36,225 nucleotides of DNA from a virus (lineage: Duplodnaviria > Heunggongvirae > Uroviricota > Caudoviricetes): the IMG/VR virus record IMGVR_UViG_2526164670_000014. One strand, 5' to 3'. Numbering within the stretch: the first letter of the stretch is position 1; each line of letters opens with the position of its first letter. The translations under genes and the position numbers were made by a program. Below are positions 1 through 31,400 of this stretch, piece by piece. The notes below the pieces were generated by a model. It was not told the DNA's origin. It did no database searches and saw only the letters and a program-made list of their open reading frames with translations.

Positions 1-1053
1 TTACGGGGTAATGCCAACCGCTGCCGCCACTTTGTCGCCACTTGGCAGCGTTGCCAGAGGATTGAAACGGAGCGCCGTTTCCAGATGATCCGGTGCCAGA
101 TGTGCGTAACGCATAGTCATTTTTATATCGTGGTGTCCGAGAATTTTTTGTAAGGCCAGAATGTTTCCACCCGACATCATGAAGTGCGCCGCAAACGTAT
201 GGCGCAGAACGTGTGTGAGTTGACCGCGAGGGAGCACGATAGACGTTTTTTCCATCACGGATAAAAATTGAAAATAGCAGTCTGTGAAGAAATTGAACCC
301 ATCAAGCGCCATGATCTCTTCGTAAAGCTCTTTACTGATAGGGATGCTTCTGTTTTTCTTCCCCTTCGTTCTTACAAAGGTAATTCGGTATTTGGTCACC
401 TGTGAACGAGTAAGATTTACGGCTTCTCGCCAGCGTGCGCCTGTGCTTAAGCATATCTTAACTACCAGTGCCAGAATTGGGTCCTGACGTTTGCAATCAG
501 CCAGTAATTCAACAATCTGCTCATGGGTAAGCCATGCCATCTCTTTTTCTGCAATGGTGAATTTTCGCATGTTCTCCAGTGGGTTCGGATACGACCATTC
601 GCCCAGGCGGGATAGTTCGCTAAAAACACTACTTAGATAGCTTTGCTCCAGGTTAATGGTGACCGGGCTTGCTCCTTTCTTCCATTTCTCGCTGAAGTAG
701 ATCTCACCTGTCAGGCGTTTATCTCGATAGTGGGCAAACATTTTAGAGGTTAGATCAGTTGCAAGGGGATTGCCCAGAGCGTCAACCATCAGCAGCAATT
801 TGTCATAGACATGCTGCCCAGCAGTCAGTGATTTACCATGTAGTTTGAACCATAGCTCAACCACGTCTTTCAGTGTTCGACGATCCACTGATTCACCTAG
901 CCAGGGCTTTGCTTCGGTTTCTTCCATCGTGTGACGCTCAAAAGCCAGTGCTTCGCCTTTGGTGGCGAATTGTTTACGCACACGACGCCCACTACGTCCG
1001 GCGGGGTAACATTCGCAAAGCCATTTTCCTGTGGTGAGTTTTCGTACAGCCAT
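1..1053 (-). CDS. int: Tyrosine-family phage integrase
   Basis: ORF track 1..1131; start placed at the ATG (MAVRKLTTGKW) at 1053, which has a GGAGG about 8 nt upstream. Motifs RHTFA and HHDIKMTMRYAH (catalytic Tyr region). Last about 13 codons are encoded by att core plus host flank. Confidence 0.9.
   Translation of the reverse strand: MAVRKLTTGKWLCECYPAGRSGRRVRKQFATKGEALAFERHTMEETEAKPWLGESVDRRTLKDVVELWFKLHGKSLTAGQHVYDKLLLMVDALGNPLATDLTSKMFAHYRDKRLTGEIYFSEKWKKGASPVTINLEQSYLSSVFSELSRLGEWSYPNPLENMRKFTIAEKEMAWLTHEQIVELLADCKRQDPILALVVKICLSTGARWREAVNLTRSQVTKYRITFVRTKGKKNRSIPISKELYEEIMALDGFNFFTDCYFQFLSVMEKTSIVLPRGQLTHVLRHTFAAHFMMSGGNILALQKILGHHDIKMTMRYAHLAPDHLETALRFNPLATLPSGDKVAAAVGITP
19..40. repeat. 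attL core (cgctgccgccaCtttgtcgcca)
   Basis: Direct repeat of 33371-33392 with a single C/T mismatch; flanking sequence diverges on both sides; lies within the 3' end of the integrase reading frame. Confidence 0.7.
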
Positions 1054-1448
1054 AAAAAATGCCCTCCAATAGAGAGCATTTTTACTGTATGTATAACCAG
1101 TGTCAATGTATGAAATCCTGCGACCATACATCTCACTGAAGCCATAATGAAGTAGGCTATTCTTTTTGCTATGTGATCATGTAACTTTTGCGGTTAACCT
1201 GTGGCTCATTTTTATTTTAGGCGCAGATATAAAAGCAAAAGTTATCGTGAGTTTTTAGTACAGATTTTTTTGGATTTACTAATAGTTCCATCATTGCAAA
1301 CGAATTTGCCATCAGAGGTACAGTGAGAAACACCTCCCTTTTTCCCTGAGCAGGGATAATTTCTAGCATAGGTAGCTAGTGGGTTTAATAACAAAGAACA
1401 TGACAAAACCACAAAAAATACCTTACCAAGCATAATTTCCTCCCGGTA

Positions 1449-3948: not shown

Positions 3949-4802
3949 GCACCATCCTGAAATGGGCGGGAAATAAAACCGCCATTATGTCCGAACTGAA
4001 AAAGCATCTTCCTGCTGGCCAGCGACTGGTTGAACCTTTCGCGGGTTCCTGTGCTGTGATGATGGAGACGGAGTACCCCAGCTATCTTGTTGCGGATATT
4101 AATCCTGATTTAATCAACCTCTATAAAAAGGTTGCTGCTGATTGTGAATCGTTTATATCTCGCGCCAGAGCTTTATTTGAGGAAGCAAACAGGGAGGTGG
4201 CTTATTACAACATAAGGCAGGAGTTTAATTACTCAACTGAAATTACTGATTTCATGAAAGCGGTATATTTCCTGTATCTCAATCGTCACGGTTACCGTGG
4301 TTTATGTCGCTATAACAAGAGCGGGCATTTCAACATTCCCTACGGTAATTATAAAAATCCGTATTTCCCTGAAAAAGAAATTCGCGCTTTTGCAGAAAAA
4401 GCCCAGCGAGCAACGTTTATCTGCGCCAGCTTTGATGAAACGTTGGCGGTGTTGAAGGCGGGGGATGTGGTGTATTGCGATCCGCCTTATGACGGTACGT
4501 TTTCCGGCTATCACGCTGACGGCTTCACTGAAGATGACCAGTATCACCTGGCATCCGTTCTTGAACATCGGTCATCAGAAGGACATCCGGTCATTGTTTC
4601 TAACAGTGACACATCCCTGATCCGTTCGCTGTATCGCAATTTTACTCACCACTATATCAAGGTAAAACGCAGCATCGGTGTGGCAGCTGGCGAGGGTAAA
4701 TCAGCAACAGAAATCATTGCTGTTTCCGGGCCGCGCTGCTGGGTGGGATTTGATTATTCGCGTGGCGTGGATAATTCTGCCGTGTACGGAGTACGTGCAT
4801 GA
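3945..4802 (+). CDS. dam: DNA N6-adenine methyltransferase (Dam-like, orphan)
   Basis: Motifs PFAGS (SAM binding) and DPPY (catalytic); GGAGG upstream of ATG 3945; no restriction-enzyme partner adjacent. Confidence 0.85.
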
Positions 4803-7213
4803 GCCATGCCGATATGAACAACTGCTGCGGCTTTAACGAGGCTGCCGCATCGTTCTCATGGAACAGCCCGAAAAAGGCCATTAACCCTTATCTGGACCCG
4901 GCGGAAGTTGCGCCGGTTTCTACGCTTTCAAACCTGATCACTCTGTACGCTGCCGATAACGAGCAGGAACAGCTGCGCCGAGAGGCACTGAGTGATCAGG
5001 TCTGGGAGCGTTATTTCTTTAATGAATCCCGTGATCCTGTCCAGCGCGAAATGGAGCAGGATAAGCTCATTAGTCGGGCAAAGCTGGCGCATGAGCAGCA
5101 GCGTTTTAATCCGGATATGGTCATTCTGGCGGACGTCAACGCCCAGCCTTCCCATATCAGCAAGCCCCTGATGCAACGTATTGAATACTTCAGCAACCTG
5201 GGCAAGCCAAAGGCTTATTCCCGCTATTTACGTGAGACGATTAAGCCATGTCTGGAACGACTGGAGCATGTACGCGACAGCCAGCTATCTGCATCTTTTC
5301 GTTTTATGGCAAGCCATGAAGGGCTGGACGGCCTGTTTATCCTGCCTGAAATGAGTCAGGATCAGGTGAAGCGCCTGTCTACCCTTGTCGCTGCGCATAT
5401 GAGCATGTGCCTTGATGCCGCTTGTGGTGATTTGTATGCCACCGATGACGTTAAGCCAGAAGAAATCCGCAAGACATGGGAAAAGGTGGCAGCGGAAACC
5501 CTGCGTCTGGATGTTATCCCGCCTGCGTTTGAGCAACTCCGTCGGAAAAGAAACCGCCGTAAACCCGTGCCCTATGAACTCATTCCGGGTTCGCTGGCGC
5601 GTATGTTGTGCGCCGACTGGTGGTACCGGAAATTATGGAAGATGCGTTGCGAATGGCGGGAAGAGCAGTTGCGTGCTGTCTGCCTTGTCAGCAAAAAAGC
5701 ATCTCCCTATGTCAGCTATGAAGCCGTGCTGCATAAACGTGAGCAGCGCCGTAAGTCGCTGGAGTTTTTCCGTTCTCATGAACTGGTGAACGAAGACGGC
5801 GACACGCTGGACATGGAGGATGTGGTAAACGCCAGCAGCAGCAACCCTGCGCATCGCCGCAATGAGATGATGGCCTGTGTTAAAGGTCTGGAGCTTATCG
5901 CGGAAATGCGCGGTGACTGCGCCGTTTTCTACACCATCACCTGTCCGTCACGTTTCCATTCCACGCTAAATAACGGCAGGCCCAACCCGACCTGGACAAA
6001 TGCGACGGTAAGACAAAGCAGCGATTATCTGGTCGGTATGTTTGCTGCATTTCGTAAGGCGATGCACAAAGCCGGGTTGCGCTGGTATGGCGTGCGGGTG
6101 GCTGAGCCGCATCACGACGGCACAGTTCACTGGCACCTGTTGTGTTTCATGCGCAAAAAAGACCGCCGCGCCATTACTGCATTGTTGCGTAAGTTTGCTA
6201 TCCGTGAAGACCGCGAGGAGCTGGGCAATAACACGGGGCCGCGCTTTAAGTCTGAGCTGATTAACCCGCGCAAAGGAACGCCGACAAGCTACATAGCGAA
6301 ATACATCAGTAAGAACATTGACGGGCGTGGTCTGGCTGGCGAGATCAGCAAGGAAACGGGTAAATCTCTGCGTGATAACGCTGAATACGTGAATGCCTGG
6401 GCGTCTTTGCATCGTGTTCAGCAATTCCGCTTCTTTGGCATTCCGGGGCGTCAGGCTTACCGTGAACTGCGATTGCTGGCTGGTCAGGCGGCAAGGCAAC
6501 AGGGGGACAAAAAAGCAGGTGCGCCGGTACTGGATAACCCGCGCCTTGATGCCATCCTGGCTGCTGCTGATGCTGGTTGTTTTGCCACCTACATCATGAA
6601 GCAGGGCGGCGTACTGGTTCCCCGTAAATATCACCTCATCAGAACCGCTTATGAAATCAACGAAGAGCCGACCGCCTATGGCGATCACGGCATTCGTATT
6701 TATGGCATCTGGTCACCCATTGCAGAGGGCAAGATCTGCACTCATGCAGTGAAGTGGAAAATGGTTCGTAAAGCCGTTGACGTTCAGGAGGCGGCAGCCG
6801 ACCAGGGCGCTTGCGCCCCTTGGACTCGTGGCAATAACTGTCCCCTTGCTGAAAATTTGTACCAACAAGGGAAAGACAAATCAGCTGATGGGGATACCAG
6901 AACGGATATCATCCGTATGGATGACAAGGAGTTGCACGATTATCTGCACAGTATGAACAAAAAAGAGCGCCGAGAACTGGCTGCAAGGTTACGCCTGGTG
7001 AAACCGAAACGGCGTAGAGACTACAAACAGCGAATTACAGACCATCAACGACAGCAGCTCGTCTATGAACTGAAGTCCAGAGGATTTGATGGCAGCGAGA
7101 AAGAGGTCGATTTACTCCTTCGCGGCGGCAGCATTCCGTCAGGAGCAGGCCTGCGAATCTTCTATCGGAACCAGCGTTTGCAGGAAGATGATAAGTGGCG
7201 GAACCTGTATTAA
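4799..7213 (+). CDS. A: Rolling-circle replication initiator/endonuclease (P2 gpA family)
   Basis: 804 aa; HUH motif (TVHWHLL) and paired tyrosines YIAKYISK typical of gpA/phiX174-type Rep; start overlaps the dam stop. Confidence 0.85.
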
Positions 7214-7973: not shown

Positions 7974-9032
7974 TTAATTTTCAATTCCCTCCATTTTACA
8001 ATGAGTTTTTTCCCAGAACTGTAATACAACAGGACTAGCCCACTCTGGCATCAGTGCGTTATTTAAAAAACTGAAAACATCATGAGACGCATCAGCATTT
8101 TTTCTAAGGAATTTCCAGCCTTTTCTAGTATTTATCTCAACAATACCTAACCCACCATCATCAAACATATGCATCTTGAATTCAGGATTGTTTACACCTA
8201 GAGATTTTATTTCTTTTATGTATGGACTATCTTCATCCATAAATATTTTCTCTATGTGCTTAGCACAATGATATATTTTATTTCGATAAGTTGATACGCT
8301 CACAGCGGTACGCGCTGTTGTTATTCCCATTCCTAATGGGGCATATGCTTTTCCATCCATCACTACGGGCAGATTTATTCCATTTTTTCTTAAGTTTGCA
8401 ATATCTGAATCTGTAGTTGGATGAATACAAGCTAAGCCTGAAATACCTTTCATTTCAAATATTTCTGCTGCTTCTGGCCAGTTGCGTATGAATGTTTCTA
8501 CCAAATCTCTTTGAGAAAAAAGATTTGGTTCTATGTTTTTATCATGATGTTTTATATCAATAAAAAGCACAGCGTTTGAGTACACCTTCAGGAATAATAC
8601 CCACTCAGCACGATCTGAGTATTTTTTACTTGAACTTACTGGATTTAATGGCAGATGGAGGTGATGAATCCCCCAATCAGCCCATAGGTTATCCGTTCTT
8701 TTCGTCGCCTTTTTACCGCTTGTGTCATTGAATAATGTTAATGTTTTACTCTGATAAGGATTTACATCACCACCAGTAGTAAACAACATCTCGATTCTCT
8801 GCAATCCAACCCTTGCGCCATCGTGAATATTTCCAGGAAATCGATCTGATTTTAAAATTATTCGTTTTTGTGGAGCAATGTAGCGTAAAAGAAAATCACA
8901 CCACCTCAGTAGAGGATCGTGAAGATTTGAGTGCCCGGATTCATCATATAATAACCCAAATGCTTGAATTCCCTTCTCTGAAATTTCGTCAATATCTTTG
9001 ATTAGATCAATATTTTTTCGTGCGTCCAACAT
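7974..9032 (-). CDS. Uncharacterised 352-aa protein in AT-rich accessory island (candidate anti-phage/accessory gene)
   Basis: Long uninterrupted ORF, GGAG 5-8 nt upstream of the ATG; about 28% GC by hand count on one 60-nt line versus about 58% on a structural-gene line; no family recognised by eye. Confidence 0.7.
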   Translation of the reverse strand: MLDARKNIDLIKDIDEISEKGIQAFGLLYDESGHSNLHDPLLRWCDFLLRYIAPQKRIILKSDRFPGNIHDGARVGLQRIEMLFTTGGDVNPYQSKTLTLFNDTSGKKATKRTDNLWADWGIHHLHLPLNPVSSSKKYSDRAEWVLFLKVYSNAVLFIDIKHHDKNIEPNLFSQRDLVETFIRNWPEAAEIFEMKGISGLACIHPTTDSDIANLRKNGINLPVVMDGKAYAPLGMGITTARTAVSVSTYRNKIYHCAKHIEKIFMDEDSPYIKEIKSLGVNNPEFKMHMFDDGGLGIVEINTRKGWKFLRKNADASHDVFSFLNNALMPEWASPVVLQFWEKTHCKMEGIEN

Positions 9033-9426
9033 ACTAACTCCGTTTAAATATAATTTTTTAGTATTTCAGTTAATTAATATCTATACGCCGTTATAGCTGA
9101 ATTTTCCGGTGATTTCAGGGCACATTAACCAATTTAGATAATACTATAGTAATGGTTGGGCTGATTTTTCAAGAACAAAAGTAATTTTCAAGCTTTGTAA
9201 CATGTTGATTTTTCACTTTTCGCTCAAGCGGGCTTTCATCTTTGCAAGCCCATATGTTCGTTTTTCAAGCGATTATTCAGATACGTTAACTTCCCATGGC
9301 AGTGCATGACTATGCTGCATGAAATCGCATGATCGATCGAGGATCGTCTATGCTTAGACCAGCCAGAAATGGCGGGCTTTTGCTCATGTCATGCAGCTGC
9401 ATGAAAACCACTGCATAAAGTGGGCA

Positions 9427-9445
9427 GGCGTGGCGGGGATACGAG
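9427..9445. other. cos-like sequence (candidate cohesive-end site)
   Basis: GGCGTGGCGGGGA matches the first 13 nt of the 19-nt cohesive end as I recall it for phage 186 (GGCGTGGCGGGGAAAGCAT); lies in a GC-rich patch between the two island genes. Confidence 0.35.
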
Positions 9446-9521
9446 CGCGCGCAACGGGTTGTCATTCAAACTCCAATGCTATAAAACTGTGTAATACAAA
9501 CAACTAAAGTAGGTGGCCTCA

Positions 9522-11267
9522 GTGGAACTGCAAGCAAATGCTCGAACCTTAACAAACGTGTTATCTGTAAATAAAAAATATATAGTCCCTAGATTCCAAA
9601 GAGAATATTCTTGGGGGAAGGAACAAGTAAGTGAACTTTGGCATGATATAGTTTCCAATATTCATTACCAGGAGGATGGGCAGTATCAATATGATGAGTA
9701 TTTCATCGGTGCTCTCGTTTTGGTCGGGCAGGAAACTAGCTCTGAGCTGATGATTGTAGATGGTCAACAACGTCTTACGACTCTTACTATATTGTTATCA
9801 GCATTATGTGATAAATTTAAGTTGATAAATGAGTTGGCTGTAGCTCAATCAATATATAATAATTATATATCTGGTATGGATGACGATGGCAGACCTTTTT
9901 TTAAATTAGTTAATGAAACTCCTAAGCCATACTTTCAAAACAACATTCAGCATATTGATAAGAGAAATGAAGGGCCGGAGTCCCTTGAAGAAAGAAACTT
10001 GCAATCTTCATATAATGATTTAACTGAGTATCTTTCAGAAGATAATCTTTGCCAGACATTAGGAGTAGATAGAGAGAAATTTATCTACTTGGAAGCGTTG
10101 AAGGCTGTGCGGGATCAAGTTCTACGGTATCTGAAAGTGATTTATATTACAGTTAATGATGAAGATGAAGCTTATACAATCTTTGAAACTCTGAATGCTA
10201 GGGGATTAAACTTAAGTTATGTAGATCTTATAAAAAACAAATTATTTAAGAAACTGAATGGCACACATCCTGATGATGATGCAAAAACTAAATGGAATAA
10301 AATTAGGCAAATAATTGCTAGTCGTAATGGTGTCGGTTCTATCGAGACATTTATCCGTCATTGGTGGGTGTCAAAATATTCTTATGTAAGTAGTGACACT
10401 CTTTATAAAGCTTTTCTGGATAAGTGGAAAAAAGGCGACATTGATGCTTCAGCGTTCATTGATGAGCTACTTTCAGATGCCGAGATATATGTGAAAATAT
10501 CATCGCCTACAGAACAGGATTTTCCTGAACTGGAAATGAAACCAGTTTATCGAGGTTTGCAGGCATTAAGGCTGTTTAACATATCTCAGAACAAACCATT
10601 TTTGTTATCTTTATTTAAGGCAAGAGCAAGAGGAACGCTAAAACTTGTTGATATGAATAATGCAGTGCTGTCAATTGAACGCTTTCATTTTATGTTTAAT
10701 GCTATTTGTTCATTGCGACCATCAGGTATTGAAAGTGCGTATGCTAAAGCTGCTAGGGCTTTAGTGGATGAAGGTTCTACTAAAGCTAGTAATAGACAAG
10801 TAATAAAGTCTTTGCTTGAAATGTTGGTGAAGAGAAAACCAGACATTAATATGTTTGTTGAAAAGTTTGTTATGCTTAAATTTTCAAATCAAGAGTTGAA
10901 AAATAAAAGGTTGATTCAGTACATTTTTAATAGACTTGAGTTACATCACATGAAAACGGGGGAGTATATGCCTGATTCATTAACATTAGAGCATATTCAG
11001 CCTCAGAGTGTGGGGGATTCTGAAGTATATAGCATGATAGGAAATTTATTACCACTTTCAAAAGAATTAAATGAAAAAGCTGGAAATAAGTCTGTTGTGG
11101 ATAAGCTTGAAATTTATAAACAATCACAATATGCGCTAGTTAAAATTTTTATTGATGAATTTGAAAATAAATATCAAGGAGAATGGACGCCCGATCATAT
11201 GAGATCAAGAGCTGCTGAACTAAGTATTTTATCGTATAATTCAGTATGGAAATTGGGGCGTGAGTAA
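9522..11267 (+). CDS. DUF262 (ParB-like NTPase) plus DUF1524 (His-Me/HNH-like nuclease) fusion protein, GmrSD-like type IV restriction family
   Basis: N-terminal YIVPRFQREYSW and DGQQRLTT motifs (DUF262); C-terminal LTLEHIQPQS...GNLLPLSKELNEKAGNK (DUF1524-like H..N..N); GTG start at 9522 with AGGTGG 5 nt upstream (ORF track begins at 9513); very AT-rich. Confidence 0.8.
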   Translation: MELQANARTLTNVLSVNKKYIVPRFQREYSWGKEQVSELWHDIVSNIHYQEDGQYQYDEYFIGALVLVGQETSSELMIVDGQQRLTTLTILLSALCDKFKLINELAVAQSIYNNYISGMDDDGRPFFKLVNETPKPYFQNNIQHIDKRNEGPESLEERNLQSSYNDLTEYLSEDNLCQTLGVDREKFIYLEALKAVRDQVLRYLKVIYITVNDEDEAYTIFETLNARGLNLSYVDLIKNKLFKKLNGTHPDDDAKTKWNKIRQIIASRNGVGSIETFIRHWWVSKYSYVSSDTLYKAFLDKWKKGDIDASAFIDELLSDAEIYVKISSPTEQDFPELEMKPVYRGLQALRLFNISQNKPFLLSLFKARARGTLKLVDMNNAVLSIERFHFMFNAICSLRPSGIESAYAKAARALVDEGSTKASNRQVIKSLLEMLVKRKPDINMFVEKFVMLKFSNQELKNKRLIQYIFNRLELHHMKTGEYMPDSLTLEHIQPQSVGDSEVYSMIGNLLPLSKELNEKAGNKSVVDKLEIYKQSQYALVKIFIDEFENKYQGEWTPDHMRSRAAELSILSYNSVWKLGRE

Positions 11268-20125: not shown

Positions 20126-20704
20126 ATGAACGCACAATTAACCGAAATCATGCGCCTTATCACCAACCTGATCCGCACAGGTGTAGTCACCGAAGTGGAC
20201 CGGGAAAACTGGCTTTGTCGGGTGAAAACGGGCGACCTGGAAACCAACTGGATCAGCTGGTTGACGCTGCGCGCGGGTAATGCCCGCACATGGTGGAAAC
20301 CATCGGAAGGTGAGCAGGTGGTGCTGCTGAGTCTGGGCGGCAATCTGGAGACTGCCTTTGCGCTGCCCGCTGTCTATTCGAATCAGTTCGTACCACCGTC
20401 GACGTCGGCGGACGCCTGCGTGACAGAACATCCTGACGGTGGCTGGTTTGAATACGAACCAGCAATCGGGCGCTGGTATGTCAGGGGCATCAAATCAATG
20501 GTCATTGAGGCCGCTGACAACATCACCATGAAAACCAGTGAGTTTGTACTGGAGGCTGACCGCACGCGCATTAACAGCGAAGTGGTGATCAATGGTGGCG
20601 TTACCCAGGGCGGCGGAGCGATGAGTTCTAACGGGATCGTGGTTGATGCGCATCAGCATACTGGCATCCTGAAAGGCGGAGACACAACCGGAGGCCCGGT
20701 ATGA
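20126..20704 (+). CDS. V: Baseplate spike/assembly protein (P2 gpV family)
   Basis: 192 aa; conserved C-terminal HxH/GG motifs (HQHTGILKGGDTTGGPV) recalled from P2 V; first gene of the V-W-J-I-H-G operon. Confidence 0.85.
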   Translation: MNAQLTEIMRLITNLIRTGVVTEVDRENWLCRVKTGDLETNWISWLTLRAGNARTWWKPSEGEQVVLLSLGGNLETAFALPAVYSNQFVPPSTSADACVTEHPDGGWFEYEPAIGRWYVRGIKSMVIEAADNITMKTSEFVLEADRTRINSEVVINGGVTQGGGAMSSNGIVVDAHQHTGILKGGDTTGGPV

Positions 20705-21060
20705 CGCTTTATAGCGGGATGAACAATACCAGCGGTAAAGCCATTACTGATATTGACCATCTGCGCCAGTCGGTGCGGGACATTCTGCTGACGCCGCAGG
20801 GTAGCCGCATTGCCCGTCGGGAATATGGTTCCCTGCTGTCGGCACTGATAGATCAGCCACAAAATCCGGCGTTACGCCTGCAGGTTATGTCGGCTGTGTA
20901 TGTGGCACTGAGTCGCTGGGAGCCACGGCTGACGCTGGATTCCATCACTATTAACAGCAATTTTGACGGTTCAATGGTGGTGGAGCTGACCGGACGGCGG
21001 AATAACGGTGTGCCTGTGTCCCTTTCAGTATCAACAGGAGCAGAGAATGGCAGTGATTGA
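20701..21060 (+). CDS. W: Baseplate protein (P2 gpW / T4 gp25-like)
   Basis: 119 aa; synteny and size. Confidence 0.8.
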   Translation: MTLYSGMNNTSGKAITDIDHLRQSVRDILLTPQGSRIARREYGSLLSALIDQPQNPALRLQVMSAVYVALSRWEPRLTLDSITINSNFDGSMVVELTGRRNNGVPVSLSVSTGAENGSD

Positions 21061-21955
21061 CCTTTCGCAGTTGCCTGCACCGCAGATTGTGGATGTGCCG
21101 GACTTTGAGACGCTGCTTGCCGAACGCAAGGCCCAATTTGTTGCGCTTCATCCGAAAGATGAGCAGGAAGCCGTGATCCGCACGCTGGAACTGGAATCTG
21201 AACCCGTCACTAAATTGTTGCAGGAGAACGCTTACCGTGAGTTGCTTCTGCGCCAGCGCATTAACGAAGCCGCGCAGGCGGTGATGGTGGCTTACGCGAT
21301 GGGCGGCGATCTTGACCAGCTCGCTGCCAACTACAACGTGACACGCCTGACGGTGACGCCTGCTGATAATGATGCTGTGCCGCCCGTTGCAGCTGTGATG
21401 GAAAGCGATGAAGCGTTACGCCTGCGTGTGCCTGCAGCCTTTGAGGGGCTTTCTGTTGCGGGGCCAACTGCAGCTTATGAATTTCATGCCCGAAGCGCCG
21501 ACGGTCGGGTAGCGGATGCCAGTGCAACCAGCCCGGCACCGGCAGAGGTGGTGCTGACTGTCCTTAGCCGCGAAGGCGATGGAACTGCAGAAAAAGACCT
21601 GCTGGACGTGGTGGAAAAAGCTCTGAACAGTGAGAACGTCCGCCCGGTGGCTGACCGTCTTACGGTTCGCAGCGCAGAAATCATCCCGTATCGCGTGGAA
21701 GCCACCATTTTTCTCTATCCGGGACCGGAAGCAGAGCCGGTAATGGCAGCGGCAAAAGCCAGTCTGCAGAAGTACATTGCCAGCCAGACGAGGCTTGGTC
21801 GGGATATTCGCCGTAGCGCCATCTTTGCTGCTCTGCATGTTGAGGGTGTTCAACGTGTGGAACTGGCTTCTCCGCTGGCGGATGTGGTCCTGAACAAAAC
21901 ACAGGCGGCATCATGTACGCAGTGGAGCGTAACCAACGGAGGAACGGATGAATAG
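21047..21955 (+). CDS. J: Baseplate wedge protein (P2 gpJ family)
   Basis: 302 aa from the ATG at 21047 (MAVIDLSQLP); ORF-track start at 21008 would overlap W too far. Confidence 0.8.
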   Translation: MAVIDLSQLPAPQIVDVPDFETLLAERKAQFVALHPKDEQEAVIRTLELESEPVTKLLQENAYRELLLRQRINEAAQAVMVAYAMGGDLDQLAANYNVTRLTVTPADNDAVPPVAAVMESDEALRLRVPAAFEGLSVAGPTAAYEFHARSADGRVADASATSPAPAEVVLTVLSREGDGTAEKDLLDVVEKALNSENVRPVADRLTVRSAEIIPYRVEATIFLYPGPEAEPVMAAAKASLQKYIASQTRLGRDIRRSAIFAALHVEGVQRVELASPLADVVLNKTQAASCTQWSVTNGGTDE

Positions 21956-22553
21956 TCTGCTGCCACCGGGTTCAACTTCACTGGAGCGCCGACTGGCGCA
22001 AACCTGTAGCGGGATTTCTGATCTGCAGGTGCCGCTGCGTGACTTGTGGAATCCGGCTACCTGTCCGGTCAGCTTCCTGCCTTATCTCGCCTGGGCGTTC
22101 TCTGTGGATCGCTGGGACGAGGGCTGGACAGAAAGCGTCAAACGCCAGGTAGTGAAGGATGCTTTTTATATTCATCAGCATAAAGGAACTACCAGTGCCG
22201 TGCGGCGGGTGGTGGAACCGTTCGGATTCCTGATCCGCATTATTGAGTGGTGGCAGACCGGAGAAACACCGGGCACGTTTCGCCTGGATATCGGCGTGCA
22301 GGACCAGGGCATCACTGAAGATACCTATCTGGAACTTGAGCGGCTGATAAGCGATGCCAAACCATGTAGCCGTCACATGATCGGCATGTCCATCAATCTG
22401 CAGACCAGCGGTCCGCATTGGGTGGGGGCCGCCAGCTATCTTGGCGAAGAAATCACGATCTATCCGTATATCAACGAAACAATTATTTCTGGCGGCACCG
22501 CGCATGAAGGCGGGGCGGTCCATGTTATTGACACAATGAGAGTGAATCCATGA
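21948..22553 (+). CDS. I: Baseplate protein (P2 gpI family)
   Basis: 201 aa; synteny between J and H. Confidence 0.8.
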   Translation: MNSLLPPGSTSLERRLAQTCSGISDLQVPLRDLWNPATCPVSFLPYLAWAFSVDRWDEGWTESVKRQVVKDAFYIHQHKGTTSAVRRVVEPFGFLIRIIEWWQTGETPGTFRLDIGVQDQGITEDTYLELERLISDAKPCSRHMIGMSINLQTSGPHWVGAASYLGEEITIYPYINETIISGGTAHEGGAVHVIDTMRVNP

Positions 22554-23947
22554 GCACAAAATTTTATACCCTGCTGACGGATATTGGCGCGGCGAAACTT
22601 GCCAGCGCCGCCGCGCTCGGTGTGCCGCTAAAAATTACCCATATGGCGGTCGGCGATGGCGGCGGAGTATTACCGACGCCGGACGCAAAGCAGACGGCAC
22701 TGGTAAATGAGAAACGCCGGGCTGCGTTGAATATGCTTTATATCGACCCGCAGAACAGTAGCCAGATTATTGCTGAACAGGTGATCCCTGAAAACGAGGG
22801 CGGTTGGTGGATACGTGAAGTGGGCCTGTTTGATGAGTCCGGGGCATTGATTGCCGTGGGAAACTGCCCGGAAAGCTATAAGCCGCAACTGGCTGAAGGC
22901 AGCGGGCGTACCCAGACCGTGCGCATGGTGCTGATTACCAGCAGCACGGACAATATCACCCTGAAAATCGACCCTGCCGTAGTGCTGGCAACCCGCAAGT
23001 ATGTGGATGATAAGGTACTGGAGCTGAAGGTGTACGTGGATGATCAGATGGCAAAACATCTTGCAGCACAGGACCCGCATTCACAGTATGCACCCAAAGA
23101 AAGTCCTACGTTTACCGGGACACCCAAAGCGCCAACGCCAGCGGCGGGGAATAACACCACGCAGGTTGCGACCACCGCGTTTGTTCAGGCGGCACTGACG
23201 GCTCTTATTAATGGTGCGCCAGCCACGCTGGACACGCTGAAAGAAATTGCCGCAGCCATAAACAATGACCCGAAATTCAGTACCACCATTAACAATGCGC
23301 TGGCACTGAAAGCGCCGCTGTCGAGTCCGGCACTCACCGGAACGCCAACAGCACCTACTGCGGCACAGTCGGTCAACAATACACAGATTGCCACCACGGC
23401 ATTTGTGAAATCGGCGATTGCGGCAATGGTGGGTTCTGCACCTGCGGCACTGGATACACTGAACGAACTGGCGGCGGCACTGGGGAATGATCCGAACTTT
23501 GCCACGACAATGCTTAATGCGCTGTCAGGTAAACAACCGCTGGACAATACGCTTACCAATTTGAGTGGAAAGGATGTAGCTGGTCTTCTCACATACCTTG
23601 GTTTGGGAGAAGCGGCAAAACGGAATGTGGGAACAGGGGAAAATCAGATACCAGATATGTCTGCATTTCCATCTGGCAAAAACTGGTTTCAGTTACCAAG
23701 TGGTCATATTGTCCAAATGTTTTCGATGAATGTTTATGGGGCGGACACTAACGGAACTACAGGTAATTTCCCTATTGCATTTCCTTCAGGCGCACTGGCT
23801 GTTAGTGCCTTATGGTCAGATGGCACATTAACGGCTGCTCCGACCTTTAAACTTATGGGGTACACGACAACAAGGACATCAGTAACCTTAAAAGTATCAA
23901 CCGGAAATGGTTTGTATGGAACTATGATTATCGCAATAGGAAGATAA
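22550..23947 (+). CDS. H: Tail fibre protein (P2 gpH family), with the currently expressed variable C-terminus
   Basis: N-terminus MSTKFYTLLTDIGAAKLASAAALG...MAVGDGGG recalled from P2 H; internal tandem repeat; C-terminal portion after 23600 lies inside the invertible segment. Confidence 0.85.
   Translation: MSTKFYTLLTDIGAAKLASAAALGVPLKITHMAVGDGGGVLPTPDAKQTALVNEKRRAALNMLYIDPQNSSQIIAEQVIPENEGGWWIREVGLFDESGALIAVGNCPESYKPQLAEGSGRTQTVRMVLITSSTDNITLKIDPAVVLATRKYVDDKVLELKVYVDDQMAKHLAAQDPHSQYAPKESPTFTGTPKAPTPAAGNNTTQVATTAFVQAALTALINGAPATLDTLKEIAAAINNDPKFSTTINNALALKAPLSSPALTGTPTAPTAAQSVNNTQIATTAFVKSAIAAMVGSAPAALDTLNELAAALGNDPNFATTMLNALSGKQPLDNTLTNLSGKDVAGLLTYLGLGEAAKRNVGTGENQIPDMSAFPSGKNWFQLPSGHIVQMFSMNVYGADTNGTTGNFPIAFPSGALAVSALWSDGTLTAAPTFKLMGYTTTRTSVTLKVSTGNGLYGTMIIAIGR
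23586..23611 (+). repeat. Invertase crossover site 1 (gix/hix/cix-like 26-bp site) inside H
   Basis: TTCTCACATACC-TT-GGTTTGGGAGAA; the right half plus centre is a perfect 14-bp inverted repeat of 25434-25447. Confidence 0.7.
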
Positions 23948-23948
23948 T

Positions 23949-24392
23949 ATGAATCAATATATTTATTCCCCTTCGGAAAATGCATTTTATGCTGTTAATT
24001 TAAAAAATACTTATGAAGTAAATGGAACATGGCCCGCTGATGCATTAGATATTCCTGATGACATTTCTGTAAAATATATGGCGGAACCGCCACAAGGGAA
24101 AATCCGAGTTGCAGGGGAAAATGGTTTTCCCACATGGGCTGAAATACCTCCACCATCACATGAGGAACTTATTGAACAGGCCGAATCAGAGAGGCAATTA
24201 TTGATTAACCATGCCAACGAATACATGAACAGTAGGCAATGGTCTGGTAAAGCAGCTATTGGTCGCCTGAAGGGGGACGAGCTGGCGCAATATAATTTGT
24301 GGCTGGATTATCTGGACGCACTGGAACTGGTCGATACTTCCGGGGCGCCAGATATTGAATGGCCTACGCCTCCGGCAGTTCAGGCCAGATGA
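23949..24392 (+). CDS. G: Tail fibre assembly chaperone (P2 gpG family), orientation A
   Basis: 147 aa immediately after H, inside the invertible segment. Confidence 0.75.
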   Translation: MNQYIYSPSENAFYAVNLKNTYEVNGTWPADALDIPDDISVKYMAEPPQGKIRVAGENGFPTWAEIPPPSHEELIEQAESERQLLINHANEYMNSRQWSGKAAIGRLKGDELAQYNLWLDYLDALELVDTSGAPDIEWPTPPAVQAR

Positions 24393-24966
24393 CATCCGGC
24401 GCTGTGCTGGTATTTGTTGCCGTCACCGCGTCAATGTAATCCAGCACAGCGTTAAGCCGGGTTGTTTCTGCCTGCATCAACTTCCGTCCGGCCTGTAATT
24501 TCAGCTGAATCAGACTGATGGAAGCCATTGCAGCATCAATCAGTGACTGACGCTGTGCTTCTGCCGCGTCTACTGCGGCGCTATGCTGTGCCTCAGTATC
24601 GGTCACCCATTTCTCACCATCCCATTTATCGTATGGCGTTAATGGGGCGATAGTGGTTGTATTTTCGGGGTAATCACCCGGTGCTGTGATTTCTTTGGCA
24701 TCTCCCGTTTCGGTGTTATAGACGATTTCACCGCGATGGTCTGGCACATATTCCCATGAATTTAAATCTACAGAACGGCAAATTGTATAACCAGCCTTAT
24801 ATGTACTAGGAGCGTCTAAACAGGAATATGCTGGAATACCGACACCCACTGCAAGATATTCAGTTGATGCAGAAATATATTCCCGAGTTTCACCATCGTA
24901 GTTATAAACGGTAATATTCCCCGCCTTCGTGGCAATAAACTCGCTATTTAATACTGCGTTATCCAT
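24364..24966 (-). CDS. Alternative tail fibre assembly chaperone (G'), orientation B
   Basis: 200-aa ORF on the opposite strand, convergent with G and downstream of the alternative fibre cassette; C-terminal block similar to the G C-terminus (W..YLDAL/AVLDYIDAV..T...PDI.WP.PP). Confidence 0.7.
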   Translation of the reverse strand: MDNAVLNSEFIATKAGNITVYNYDGETREYISASTEYLAVGVGIPAYSCLDAPSTYKAGYTICRSVDLNSWEYVPDHRGEIVYNTETGDAKEITAPGDYPENTTTIAPLTPYDKWDGEKWVTDTEAQHSAAVDAAEAQRQSLIDAAMASISLIQLKLQAGRKLMQAETTRLNAVLDYIDAVTATNTSTAPDVIWPELPEA

Positions 24967-25445
24967 TATGCAGCCCTCACGATAAAGTTAAATGCAATAT
25001 TTCGTGGACGGGTCTCACTCCCACCAGTATTACCGATACTCCCTCGTGAATGAAGTGTCGGTGATGGGATCAGACTCCCTCCTGTATTTGTGGCATCAAG
25101 TCCCCGTCCTTGTGTGTATGTTTTTTTGAAAATCGTAGCCAGTTCCCATTCATCTTTTGTGTCGTAACCATCATTGGCAACAACAATATGGCGGTGTTTT
25201 TCCAGCATCCCAGCCTGAAGGCTCAATAAAGCACGTCCAGCATCAATACCACGCCCGTCATCCCAGCCACGAATAAACTCACCACGTAAATCTGGCAATT
25301 TATTTGTCGGGTAAGCCTTTGCCAGTTCCGGGTATTCTTCAGCAGAAAAAGCTGCTCCGTTGCATTTCAGCCAGCCTGTTGGCGGAGTGGCTGAAGGCCA
25401 CGGAACAGGGACACCAACAGGTAATGCAGAGCCTTCTCCCAAACC
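24966..25445 (-). CDS. Alternative tail-fibre C-terminal cassette (Hv'), promoterless until inversion
   Basis: Reverse-strand ORF beginning at crossover site 2 in the same frame as H relative to the shared GLGE codons; contains tail-fibre receptor-binding motifs (PTGW..C.G...S..EYPEL...LPDLRGEFIRG). Confidence 0.7.
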   Translation of the reverse strand, partial: GLGEGSALPVGVPVPWPSATPPTGWLKCNGAAFSAEEYPELAKAYPTNKLPDLRGEFIRGWDDGRGIDAGRALLSLQAGMLEKHRHIVVANDGYDTKDEWELATIFKKTYTQGRGLDATNTGGSLIPSPTLHSRGSIGNTGGSETRPRNIAFNFIVRAA

Positions 25446-25459
25446 AACGTTTAAGAAAA
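25434..25459 (+). repeat. Invertase crossover site 2 (gix/hix/cix-like 26-bp site)
   Basis: TTCTCCCAAACC-AA-CGTTTAAGAAAA; inverted relative to site 1; about 55 bp upstream of the invertase start. Confidence 0.7.
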
Positions 25460-25514
25460 TGCAGCGATTACGACTAACTGGCATCATCCCCGGTTTTTAT
25501 TCAGGGGATTGATC

Positions 25515-26081
25515 ATGCTTATTGGCTATGTACGCGTGTCAACAAATGACCAGAACACCGATTTGCAACGTAATGCACTGAACTGCGCGGGATGTGAGCG
25601 GATTTTTGAGGACAAAATCAGTGGCACTAAGTCCGACAGACCGGGGCTTAAAAAACTGCTCAGGACACTATCGGCAGGTGACACACTGGTTGTCTGGAAG
25701 CTGGACAGGTTGGGGCGCAGTATGCGGCATCTTGTTACGCTGATAGAAGAGTTGCGCCAGCGCGGCGTGAATTTCCGAAGCCTGACTGACAGTATTGATA
25801 CCAGTACCCCAATGGGCCGTTTCTTTTTTCATGTCATGGGTGCCCTGGCTGAAATGGAACGCGAACTGATAGTTGAACGTACCAGGGCAGGGCTGGCTGC
25901 AGCTCGTGCTAAAGGCAGAGTAGGTGGACGCCGTCCTAAGTTGACTACCGAACAGTGGGCACAGATTGGACGTTTACTCGAGGCCGGAGAATCAAGACAG
26001 CGTATTGCACTGATTTTTGATGTAGGCGTTTCTACCATTTATAGAAAATTTCCGGCAAATAAGAGCAATGAATCTCCCTGA
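25515..26081 (+). CDS. Serine DNA invertase (Gin/Cin/Pin/Hin family)
   Basis: 188 aa from the ATG at 25515; N-terminal GYVRVSTNDQ with catalytic Ser, resolvase core, C-terminal HTH (GESRQRIALIFDVGVSTIYRKF). Confidence 0.9.
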   Translation: MLIGYVRVSTNDQNTDLQRNALNCAGCERIFEDKISGTKSDRPGLKKLLRTLSAGDTLVVWKLDRLGRSMRHLVTLIEELRQRGVNFRSLTDSIDTSTPMGRFFFHVMGALAEMERELIVERTRAGLAAARAKGRVGGRRPKLTTEQWAQIGRLLEAGESRQRIALIFDVGVSTIYRKFPANKSNESP

Positions 26082-26129
26082 ATCAGCATTATTTTGATTA
26101 TTCCTGCAAGCGGAAAAATACCGTCATTT

Positions 26130-26147
26130 TGTGTGAATAACGGTACA
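26130..26147 (+). promoter_or_regulatory. Late-promoter activator dyad TGT-N12-ACA upstream of FI
   Basis: TGTgtgaataacggtACA, nearly identical arms to the P/O dyad; centre 85.5 nt upstream of the FI start codon. Confidence 0.55.
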
Positions 26148-26223
26148 ACTGCGCTTAGCTGTTTGTCGGACACAATCACTTCAACATAGGGCGAAGCCTA
26201 ATCCAATCAGGAGGTTCGCCGCT

Positions 26224-27396
26224 ATGGCTCAGGATTACCACCACGGGGTGCGCGTTGTTGAAGTCAACGAAGGCACCCGATCCATTACCACGGTGAGCAC
26301 CGCCATCGTGGGTATGGTCTGCACGGGCGATGATGCCGATGCAAAAATGTTTCCTCTTAATAAACCCGTGCTGATCACTGATGTGCTGACTGCCAGCGGT
26401 AAAGCGGGTGAGTCCGGTACGCTGGCCCGTTCGCTGGACGCCATCGCTGACCAGGCAAAACCCGTGACCGTTGTTGTGCGTGTGCCGCAGGGTGAAACGG
26501 AAGAAGAAACCACGACCAATATCATCGGAGCAGTGACCGCTGAAGGTAAAAAAACAGGCATGAAAGCCTTGTTATCTGCCCAGTCACAGCTTGGCGTTAA
26601 ACCGCGCATTCTCGGCGTGCCAGGCCACGACACCAAGGCGGTAGCTACTGAGTTGCTGAGCGTGGCGCAAAGCCTGCGTGGATTTGCTTACCTGTCAGCG
26701 TATGGCTGCAAGACGGTACAGGAGGCGATCACTTACCGTGAAAACTTCAGCCAGCGCGAAGGGATGCTGATCTGGCCTGACTTTACTGGCTGGGACACGG
26801 TGCTGAATGCCGAAGCAACGGCATATGCCACCGCCCGTGCGCTTGGTCTGCGCGCCAAAATTGACGAGCAGACCGGATGGCACAAAAGCCTGTCCAACGT
26901 GGGCGTGAACGGTGTCACCGGAATTTCTGCTGATGTGTTCTGGGATCTGCAGGACACGGCAACAGATGCGGGACTGCTGAACCAGAACGACGTCACCACC
27001 CTTATCCGCAAAGACGGTTTCCGCTTCTGGGGTTCCCGCTGCCTGAGTGATGACCCGCTCTTTGCCTTCGAAAACTACACCCGCACGGCGCAAGTACTTA
27101 TGGACACAATGGCAGAAGCGCATATGTGGGCGGTGGACAAACCGCTGAACCCGTCGTTGGCCCGCGACATTATCGAAGGTATCCGCGCCAAAATGCGCAG
27201 CCTGGTCAGTCAGGGCTATCTCATTGGTGGTGATTGCTGGCTGGATGAGTCGGTGAACGACAAAGACACGCTGAAAGCCGGGAAGCTCACCATCGACTAC
27301 GACTACACGCCAGTGCCGCCACTTGAAAACCTGATGCTGCGTCAGCGCATCACCGATCAGTACCTGGTGAATTTCTCCAGCCAGGTCAGCGCGTAA
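26224..27396 (+). CDS. FI: Contractile tail sheath protein (P2 gpFI family)
   Basis: 390 aa; AGGAGG RBS; position before the tube gene. Confidence 0.85.
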
Positions 27397-27405
27397 GGGG
27401 ACAAC

Positions 27406-27921
27406 ATGGCTTTACCACGCAAATTAAAACACCTGAACCTGTTTAACGACGGGAACAACTGGCAGGGGATCGTTGAGTCGCTGACGCTGCCGAAATTCAC
27501 CCGCAAATATGAGAAGTATCGCGGCGGCGGAATGCCGGGGGCGGTGGATGTGGATCTGGGGCTTGATGACAGTGCTCTGGACACAGAATTTTCCATTGGT
27601 GGTACTGAGCTGCTGCTGTTTAAGCAGATGGGCAAAGCCACGGTGGATGGCATCCAGTTGCGCTTTACCGGCTCTATCCAGCGTGATGATACCGGGGAAG
27701 TGCAGGCCGTGGAGCTTGTGGTGCGTGGACGTCACAAAGAAGTGGATTCCGGCGAGTGGAAGACGGGCGAAAGCAACACCACTAAAGTGACCAGTACCAA
27801 CAGCTACGCGAAGCTGACTATCAATGGTGAGGTGCTCTATGAAGTGGACCTTATCAACATGGTGGAAATTGTGGACGGTGTGGACCTGATGGAAGCGCAC
27901 CGCAACGCCCTCGGCCTCTGA
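27406..27921 (+). CDS. FII: Tail tube protein (P2 gpFII family)
   Basis: 171 aa directly after the sheath gene. Confidence 0.85.
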   Translation: MALPRKLKHLNLFNDGNNWQGIVESLTLPKFTRKYEKYRGGGMPGAVDVDLGLDDSALDTEFSIGGTELLLFKQMGKATVDGIQLRFTGSIQRDDTGEVQAVELVVRGRHKEVDSGEWKTGESNTTKVTSTNSYAKLTINGEVLYEVDLINMVEIVDGVDLMEAHRNALGL

Positions 27922-28412: not shown

Positions 28413-31400
28413 TAATAACCTGCGCCTGCAGGTCATTCTTAATGCGGTTGACAAACTCACCCGCCCATTCCGTGCTGCACAGGCCAGTTCGAAAGAGCTG
28501 GCTGGCGCAATCAGAAACTCCCGTGACGCATTAAAGCAACTCAATCAGGCGGGTAACAGCCTGGAAAAATTTCGCAAGCTGCAGGCCGATAACAAAAAGT
28601 TAGGCGACAGGCTGAACTATGCCAGACAGAAGGCAAATTTGCTTAGTTCTGAGCTGGAAGCGATGGAACAACCATCACAAAGGCATCTTGTGGCTTTAGG
28701 TCGGCAAACGCTGGCAGTCCAACGCCTGGAAGAACAACAAAAATATTTGCAGAAGCAAACGGCGCTTGTGCGTGCAGAACTGTACCGGGCGGGAATTTCT
28801 GCGAAAGATGATGCGGGAGCAACTGCCCGTTTAGCCCGTGAAACATCACGTTATAACCAGGAACTTTCGAAACAAGAGGCGCGGCTGAAGCGACTGGGGG
28901 AAGCTCAGCGCAGGATGAATGCGGCGCGTGCCAGTTATGCCCGTTCGCTGGAGGTGCGTGATCGTATTGCAGGTGCCGGAGCCACCACCACGGCTGCAGG
29001 GCTGGCAATGGGCGCACCAGTGATGGCGGCAGTAAAAAGCTATACCAGCATGGAAGATGCCATGAAAGGTGTGGCAAAGCAGGTCAATGGTCTGCGTGAC
29101 GATAATGGCAACCGCACCGCGCGTTTTTACGAAATGCAGGATGCCATCAAGGGTGCCAGCGAACAGTTGCCGATGGAAAACGGTGCTGTGGACTTTGCCG
29201 CACTGGTTGAAGGTGGTGCGCGCATGAACGTCGCAAATCCTGACGACAGCTGGGAAGACCAGAAACGTGATCTGCTGGCCTTCGCCAGCACGGCAGCAAA
29301 GGCGGCAACAGCCTTTGAGCTGCCAGCGGATGAACTGTCAGAAAGTCTGGGGAAAATCGCCCAGCTCTACAAAATCCCTACCCGCAATATTGAACAGCTC
29401 GGTGATGCGCTGAACTATCTGGATGATAACGCCATGTCGAAAGGGGCAGACATCATTGATGTCATGCAACGCCTGGGCGGTGTGGCTGATCGTCTGGATT
29501 ATCGTAAAGCGGCGGCACTGGGTTCCACCTTTCTGACACTGGGCGCTGCGCCGGAGGTTGCAGCCAGTGCAGCAAACGCGATGGTGCGTGAATTGTCCAT
29601 TGCCACCATGCAAAGCAAGAGTTTCTTTGAAGGGATGAATCTGCTGAAACTCAATCCTGAAGTGATTGAAAAGCAGATGACGAAGGATGCGATGGGAACT
29701 ATCCAGCGTGTGCTGGAGAAGGTGAACGCACTGCCGCAGGACAAGCGTCTGTCTGCCATGACCATGTTGTTTGGTAAAGAGTTTGGTGATGACGCGGCGA
29801 AACTGGCAAACAACCTTCCGGAACTGCAGCGCCAGCTAAAACTGACAGCGGGCAATGATGCGCTCGGTTCCATGCAGAAAGAATCCGACATCAACAAAGA
29901 CTCACTTTCTGCTCAGTGGTTGCTGGTCAAAACCGGAGCGCAGAACACCTTCAGCAGCCTGGGCGAAACGCTGCGCCAGCCGCTGATGGATATTCTGTAC
30001 ACGGTGAAAAGCATCACGGGGGCGTTGCGCCGCTGGGTGGAAGCTAACCCGGAACTGACAGGCACACTGATGAAAGTAGCGGCTGTTGTGGCTGCGGTTA
30101 CCGTAGGCCTCGGCACCTTAGCGGTGGCGCTGGCTGCAGTGCTGGGGCCGCTGGCAGTCATCCGTCTGGGATTCTCTGTGCTGGGTATCAAAACGTTACC
30201 TTCCGTTACGGCAGCAGTAACACGAACCAGCAGCGCGTTGTCCTGGTTAGCTGGCGCTCCACTGGCACTGCTGCGACGCGGGCTTGCTTCATCGGGCAAC
30301 GCAGCGGGTTTACTTACTGCGCCGTTGTCGTCTTTGCGCCGCACGGCATCACTGACGGGGAATGTCCTGAAAACTGTAGCAGGTGTGCCGGTTGCACTGT
30401 TGCGGTCTGGATTATCCGGTTTACGTGCTGTTGCTGTGATGTTTATGAATCCACTGGCAGCACTACGCGGTGGACTGGCTGCCGCAGGCGCGGTGCTGCG
30501 AGTACTGGCATCCGGTCCGCTGGCGATGCTGCGCGTTGCTCTGTATGCCATATCTGGTCTGTTAGGTGCTCTGCTCAGTCCGATAGGTCTTGTGGTTACT
30601 GCACTGGCGGGCGTGGCGCTGGTTGTCTGGAAATACTGGCAACCCATCACCGCATTTCTCGCTGGTGTGGTGGAAGGATTCAAAGCGGCGGCAGGTCCCA
30701 TCAGTGCAGCATTCGAACCACTTAAGCCTGTGTTTCAGTGGATTGGCGACAAAGTGCAGGCGTTGTGGGGCTGGTTTACTGATCTGCTGACGCCCGTTAA
30801 GTCGACCTCTGCCGAACTGCAGAGCGCAGCGGCAATGGGGCGACGATTCGGGGAGGCACTGGCGGAAGGGCTGAATATGGTCATGCATCCGCTGGACTCC
30901 CTGAAATCCGGCGTTTCCTGGTTGCTGGAGAAACTCGGCATTGTCAGTAAAGAGGCTGCAAAGGCGAAACTGCCGGAAAGCGTGACGCGTCAGCAACCTG
31001 CGACGGTGAATGCAGACGGTAAAGTGATGATGCCATCGGGTGGTTTTCCATCATGGGGATATGGCTTTGCGGGGATGTATGACAGCGGCGGCTATATCCC
31101 GCGCGGGCAGTTTGGCATCGTCGGTGAAAACGGGCCGGAAATTGTTAACGGCCCGGCAAATGTGACCAGCCGGAGAAATACAGCTGCACTGGCTGCCGTT
31201 GTTGCCGGAATGATGGGCGTTGCTGCCGCGCCTGCAGAGCTTCCACCGTTGCATCCTTTGGCACTTCCCGCGAAAGGCGGCGAAGCGATGGTGAGTCGTG
31301 CAGCCACTGTGCCGCCCGTTCACCGGATTGAGGCACCGACGCAGATCATCATTCAGACGCAGCCAGGACAAAGTGCGCAGGATATTGCGCGGGAGGTGGC

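Follow-up and report, generated by a model that had tools for sequence, protein, structure and literature searches.

The locus described here lies within a stretch of DNA of 36,225 nucleotides (the window, numbered from its first letter), held as IMG/VR virus record IMGVR_UViG_2526164670_000014 and corresponding to an Escherichia coli P2-like prophage. The constant part of its tail-fibre gene H is followed by two fibre-tip cassettes, each with its own assembly gene, that point towards each other between two inverted 26-bp sites and adjoin a gene for a serine DNA invertase; together they form a candidate site-specific inversion switch. The features of this module are, from left to right:

22550-23947, plus strand: H, whole open reading frame, 465 amino acids (aa)
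22550-23597, plus strand: Hc, the constant N-terminal part of H, about 349 aa; Pfam Phage_tail_fib (PF12571) over residues 1-150, E 5e-65
23586-23611, plus strand: site 1, on the H side, TTCTCACATACC-TT-GGTTTGGGAGAA, with its central dinucleotide TT at 23598-23599
23600-23947, plus strand: Hv, the tip now in frame with H, 115 aa counted from G-L-G-E; Pfam Gp53-like_C (PF21882), E 2e-7
23949-24392, plus strand: G, the assembly protein cognate to Hv, 147 aa; Pfam Caudo_TAP, E 1e-32; phrog_188
24364-24966, minus strand: G', the alternative, TfaE-like assembly protein, 200 aa; Pfam Caudo_TAP, E 2e-30; phrog_105
24966-25445, minus strand: Hv', the silent alternative tip, 159 aa counted from G-L-G-E; Pfam Collar (PF07484), E 1e-15
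25434-25459, plus strand: site 2, on the invertase side, TTCTCCCAAACC-AA-CGTTTAAGAAAA, with its central dinucleotide AA at 25446-25447
25446-25487, minus strand: a fixed leader of 14 codons with an ATGATG start at 25482-25487, outside the invertible segment and in frame with whichever cassette is silent; here it makes the open reading frame 24966-25487
25515-26081, plus strand: Din-family serine DNA invertase, 188 aa, catalytic Ser9; Pfam Resolvase (E 2e-53) and HTH_7 (E 1e-15); phrog_125, DNA invertase
25536-25600, no strand: putative recombinational enhancer with putative Fis sites, inside the 5' end of the invertase gene and aligning with the 5' ends of gin and pinE

The two tips belong to different families (Gp53-like_C and Collar), and each is followed by its own Caudo_TAP assembly gene, so that open reading frames and Pfam domains alike bear out the arrangement proposed by the initial annotation, with Hv and G on the plus strand and Hv' and G' on the minus strand between the sites; the two cassettes are convergent, and the 3' ends of G and G' overlap by 29 bp on opposite strands. 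Hv also falls in PHROG tail-fibre families, the counterparts of G' in relatives are named tfaE by RefSeq, and Hv' occupies most of the minus-strand frame 24966-25487. When the segment 23598-25447 is reversed in silico, H becomes fused in frame to Hv' to give a protein of 509 aa that is not interrupted by any stop codon. The in-frame exchange of one C-terminus for another, as first suggested from the letters of the window, thus has a counterpart in a deposited genome: the annotated H protein of E. coli TUM13066 is 96% identical to this fusion and aligns to it without gaps, and in the tip part the two differ at a single residue.

The two 26-bp sites stand exactly where the initial annotation had put them, with the letters as it wrote them, in inverted orientation and with a perfect 14-bp core; they are imperfectly palindromic. 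The core, TTCTCCCAAACCAA, has just two copies in the 36-kb window, one per strand; a third copy was absent from the window at up to 3 mismatches, and a multi-inversion shufflon, as found in one prophage of enteropathogenic E. coli (EPEC), was rejected for the window on this ground. The sites constitute the longest inverted repeat in the interval 22000-27500 (27-nt arms, 81% complementary, 1820 nt apart), and the perfect repeat is in fact 15 bp long (23598-23612 and 25433-25447). Repeat length as a proof was dropped: at least one perfect 15-bp inverted repeat within 3 kb arose by chance in 16 of 200 simulated windows (8%). Since such a repeat taken alone is not very rare, the weight rests on position, context and conservation. 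Site 1 coincides with the boundary between the conserved H stem and the variable tip. The inner half-sites are identical between site 1 and site 2 and encode G-L-G-E, and the central dinucleotides TT and AA are identical once the sites are aligned in inverted orientation, which is the condition for religation after a rotation by 180 degrees. The crossover had been placed within the shared G-L-G-E codons; this is right for the inner half-site, but the central TT itself belongs to the CTT codon for Leu, directly before G-L-G-E. The same two sites recur at the same places in the e14 element, four E. coli loci and about 50 viral-contig loci (site 1 being near-identical in about 50), and site 2 begins 81 bp before the invertase start codon in most of the viral-contig loci and 80 bp before it in e14 and e14-type loci. 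Site 2 differs from the pin-side site of e14 at 1 of 26 bases and matches Mu gixR at 17 of 26 positions in an alignment counted by eye.

Both orientations of the segment are present in public genomes. TUM13066 carries the same cassettes in the opposite orientation at 97.9% DNA identity, and its two 26-bp sites match those of the window letter for letter. In two isolates from one Okinawan survey, OkiPb01698 and OkiPb01682, a 95%-related module occupies the same position in the chromosome, and the protein accessions of all flanking genes agree; between the two isolates, a segment of 1834 bp is 100% identical as its reverse complement, and the junctions fall inside the core. Across 5,426 complete E. 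coli genomes, where a match required at least 80% of the query to be covered, 79 records matched the native query and 106 the flipped one. A second set took in 80 IMG/VR loci whose invertase shares at least 85% identity with that of the window; exactly two inverted sites, 1.1-2.0 kb apart, were found in 52 of these 80 (53 loci with the window). These 53 loci hold 87 distinct tips in 106 slots, and their cassettes are extremely mosaic behind an H stem that is 95-99% identical in most related loci, whatever tip comes next. Where a collar tip is paired with a tip of another type (n=35 viral-contig loci), the collar tip is silent, as in the window, in 21 and expressed in 14; two non-collar tips are present in 18 of the 53, and identical cassette pairs occur in both states in two groups among the viral-contig loci. 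Judged by sequence comparison, inversion of the segment thus holds for near-identical elements, namely TUM13066, the OkiPb pair and the loci of the two censuses.

Four of the viral-contig loci (L023, L026, L053 and L014) are built differently: they have three or four Din sites, and parts of them are duplicated or rearranged, for example as an inverted second copy of the invertase-FI region or with H beyond the invertase; in L023 (1-7564), one junction, at about 4330, lies off any site. These loci could be assembly chimeras of mixed orientations or the outcome of recombination between two P2-like prophages.

As stated in the initial annotation, the ATG of the serine invertase gene (25515) lies 55 bp beyond site 2. 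The protein is 85% identical to e14 PinE and 74% identical to Mu Gin, and it matches the Mu Gin structures 3UJ3 and 4M6F over residues 1-184 (E 8e-93), with Ser9 located within an invariant VRVSTNDQ motif. It is 100% identical to the TUM13066 protein WP_000905033.1, the same accession being found in all four E. coli loci retrieved; this RefSeq protein is present in many E. coli prophages. Taking Hin numbering to be offset by +1 relative to the invertase of the window, K46, K47 and R50 in helix B and Q150, R153 and L154 in helix 1 of the DNA-binding domain are present at the aligned Fis-dependence positions. In invertases that depend on Fis and the enhancer, the specific residues are K47, K/R48 and K/R51 of Hin helix B and Q151, R154 and L155 of helix 1 of its DNA-binding domain (McLean et al., PMC3798978).

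The enhancer itself would lie in the 5' end of the invertase gene. Among 70 distinct invertase genes, including gin and pinE, codons 9-13 (TCAACAAATGACCAG, 25539-25553) have four invariant third positions and one near-invariant one, in a gene where third positions are variable in 81% of codons 31-178 (Fisher p 0.02 for codons 6-14). No other stretch of the gene has such a run of conserved third positions, which points to a DNA element within the coding sequence, presumably one of the enhancer's Fis sites; in the Hin and Gin enhancers, the proximal Fis site lies in this region. The candidate enhancer is separated from the centre of site 2 by about 95 bp; for the Hin enhancer, the native distance to hix is about 100 bp (PMC4817059).

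Among the closest known systems is the P segment of e14 in E. coli K-12 (stfP-tfaP-tfaE-stfE-pinE), which resembles the window in gene order, strands, 29-bp overlap of the tfa 3' ends and crossover core. Inversion of this segment was demonstrated by PCR, quantitative PCR and sequencing, and its repeats, TTGGTTTGGGAGAAGG and CCTTCTCCCAAACCAA, are known from sequenced inverted survivors (PMC12529663). They correspond to the core of the window, and the inner 16 nt of site 1 match the repeat TTGGTTTGGGAGAAGG from that study at 15 of 16 positions. The segments measure 1850 bp in the window and 1797 bp in e14. The e14 element is lambdoid and defective, and its fibre gene is truncated (StfP, 209 aa), whereas the window is a P2-like prophage that looks complete and has a full H gene. 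The receptor-binding parts differ: Hv' is 60% identical to StfE, the first 68 aa being identical and the remainder divergent, and Hv is just 31% identical to StfP. Phase-variable P2-like prophages are also known from EPEC strain E2348/69: the C-terminus of the tail fibre is exchanged by means of an invertase and inverted repeats, and for two of these prophages both orientations coexist in cultures, as established by sequencing and PCR (Goldberg et al. 2014, PMC4272514). Their likeness to the window is drawn from the published description; one of the EPEC loci contains three repeats and four variants, against two sites only in the window.

The G segment of Mu with its invertase Gin (S/U and S'/U') follows the same plan (Sc - gixL - Sv U / U' S'v - gixR - gin), the 5' ends of the two invertase genes align, presumed enhancer included, and the residues encoded at the site are N-L-G-L-Q-E in Mu and Y-L-G-L-G-E in the window. 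Mu differs from the window in its segment of about 3 kb with longer variable parts, in its central dinucleotide (TC/GA against TT/AA) and in being a Mu-like and not a P2-like phage. P1 and carotovoricin switch fibre tips, as the module in the window would. P1 C/Cin, Salmonella Hin/hix and carotovoricin Er share the recombinase family and the logic of 26-bp sites (PMC3798978), P1 and carotovoricin being likened by description; Hin, unlike the window, switches a promoter and not a coding end. The initial annotation had assigned the module to the Mu G, P1 C and e14 type, and every structural element of this type is indeed present: a constant stem, two tip families, paired Caudo_TAP proteins and an invertase.

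The module is thus very probably a site-specific inversion switch of the Din family (Hin/Gin/Cin/Pin), located in the tail-fibre operon of a P2-like prophage of E. coli. By analogy with the characterized members of the family, dimers of the invertase would bind both 26-bp sites and, with host Fis bound to the enhancer in the 5' end of the invertase gene, would assemble into an invertasome; Ser9 would then make staggered double-strand cuts at the central AA/TT dinucleotides, and half of the tetramer would rotate by 180 degrees before the ends rejoin, leaving the 1850-bp segment reversed. Both this chemistry and the Fis dependence are carried over from those relatives; a need for host Fis and DNA supercoiling, and cross-complementation among Gin, Cin, Pin and Hin, are marks of the family. 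In the present orientation, the late operon would produce H(1-349) joined to Hv, a fibre of 465 aa with a gp53-like tip and G as its chaperone; after inversion, it would produce H(1-349) joined to Hv', a fibre of 509 aa with a collar-type tip and G' as its chaperone. A population of lysogens would in this way release two types of virions differing in their adsorption specificity.

The two tips would accordingly recognise different receptors: the tip families are unrelated and each comes with a chaperone of its own, from which two specificities can reasonably be inferred. In tblastn searches of 50,697 phage records, the best phage match to Hv was 61% identical (Cronobacter phage JK004); that to Hv' reached 74% when two pieces were joined and about 61% as a single alignment, for the most part owing to the conserved collar part. 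In sequence searches of the Protein Data Bank (PDB), the collar region of Hv' matched T4 gp37 (2XGF) and gp12, as expected of a generic collar domain, and Hv gave a faint match to the R1-pyocin fibre 6CXB (E 0.016).

The leader raises the question as to whether the switch serves the lysogen, besides or instead of the host range of the virion. From the ATGATG at 25482-25487, the silent cassette could be translated as a free tip which, together with its chaperone, would mask a surface receptor and block other phages; if this were true, the switch would at the same time act as a phase-variable system of superinfection exclusion, a role recently claimed for StfE2 of e14. The ATGATG start and the open leader frame are kept in 46 of 46 distinct spacers (74 loci, e14 included), an ATG occupies the same place in Mu, and ACTGGCATCAT around the ATGATG is invariant while adjacent bases vary. 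Moreover, inversion of the e14 P segment produces a chimeric StfE2 reported to block the adsorption of T2 (Kirigo et al. 2025). Against this, a leader of 14 codons is open by chance about half the time, its residues vary freely and hence bear no sign of selection at the protein level, and the Shine-Dalgarno context, as read from the sequence, is poor; the conserved CATCAT fits a promoter or operator element of the invertase equally well, so that the ATGATG leader may be either such an element or the start of a tip-only protein. As the prophage looks intact, the host range of the virion is also the simpler selective reason, and a role in the lysogen appears unlikely.

To return to the inversion switch acting on virion fibres, several points weigh against it. 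A promoter and terminator scan of 25380-26260 returned just one weak stem-loop (25476-25495) and no sigma-70-like promoter for the invertase. The enhancer signal is modest (p 0.02, from synonymous sites), and pairwise comparison of synonymous sites with gin and pinE gave no significant signal. In its outer half, site 1 reads CATACC where e14 and Mu have AAAACC. Neither tip has a close characterised relative among the 50,697 phage records or in the PDB sequence searches; the related tips that turned up all come from uncharacterised phages, and no receptor can be named from them. Finally, for the source strain itself, switching is deduced from its sequence and from the behaviour of its relatives.

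Some of these points would fit a frozen relic, in which the repeats and the invertase were inherited and the segment is fixed in this strain, for instance through a silent invertase, so that only the gp53-like tip is made. Such a relic could account for both the missing promoter-like site and the deviant outer half of site 1; a scan yielding no promoter-like match settles nothing on the expression of the invertase, however, and loci with the outer half-site CATACC are found in both orientations. The invertase has its full length and shares 100% identity with the protein of loci seen in both orientations, both sites are identical to those of the flipped TUM13066, and both states are common in relatives, which together make a frozen segment quite improbable. 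That the opposite orientations result from RecA-dependent recombination or assembly errors at the inverted repeats is hardly credible: the rearranged or duplicated pieces of L023, L026, L053 and L014 do look like assembly chimeras, but a 15-bp repeat is not long enough for homologous recombination to be efficient, the junctions coincide exactly with the 26-bp sites in genomes that are complete and mostly from long reads, a dedicated invertase adjoins in every locus, and the homologous e14 segment needs pinE/pinQ to invert (PMC12529663).

The module in the window is real and functional-looking, and the initial annotation interpreted it correctly; it is of a textbook kind that is already known, near-identical copies being present in many public genomes, where they are routinely annotated. 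Its consequences are practical ones. In terms of annotation, the 173-aa "phage tail protein" called at 24966-25487 would be the silent half of a two-state fibre gene, and the H gene would have two products. Where such a prophage serves as a tailocin or therapeutic scaffold, the switch would make its lysates mixtures of two adsorption types. The 87 distinct tips found in 53 loci behind one near-constant H stem and one invertase also constitute a convenient natural library for the study of receptor-binding domains.

The remainder of the window follows the P2 gene order int ... A ... Q P / O N M L ... V W J I H G ... FI FII E T U D ogr, as matched on a map of the open reading frames. The integrase and the gene A product (GPA) were assigned by Pfam; most structural genes were named from their position and from the annotation of relatives only, which at this locus reads baseplate, tail protein I, sheath and tube. 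The features outside the switch are:

1-1131, minus strand: integrase (Pfam)
4799-7213: replication gene A (Pfam GPA)
7974-9032, minus strand: PD-T4-7 defence protein (PADLOC, E 9e-144)
9513-11267, plus strand: type IV restriction enzyme of the GmrSD/HEC-06 type (Pfam GmrSD_N/C)
20126-22553: baseplate genes V, W, J and I (open reading frame map, position)
26130-26147, plus strand: TGT-N12-ACA dyad, about 75 bp upstream of FI, read directly from the sequence
26224-27396: sheath gene FI, followed by tube, tape measure and D

Capsid and lysis genes lie between gene A and the baseplate genes on the same map. At the right end, an ogr-like gene is followed by the host genes grxA-ybjM-ybjL, 100% identical to E. 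coli chromosomes; the window contains no tRNA gene. The dyad at 26130-26147 is putatively the Ogr-dependent late promoter P_F of P2; if so, the switch module is placed between G and P_F, and the alternative cassette and the invertase would occupy the position of the non-essential Z/fun locus of P2. Further downstream, a second perfect 15-bp inverted repeat (TCAGCGCATCACCGA, 27342-27356 and 29399-29413) lies inside the tail genes, at chance level and with no recombinase context seen around it. The two defence genes form a low-GC cargo (34-38% GC, 7974-11267) between P2 gene A and the portal gene Q, the classic old/tin defence hotspot of P2.

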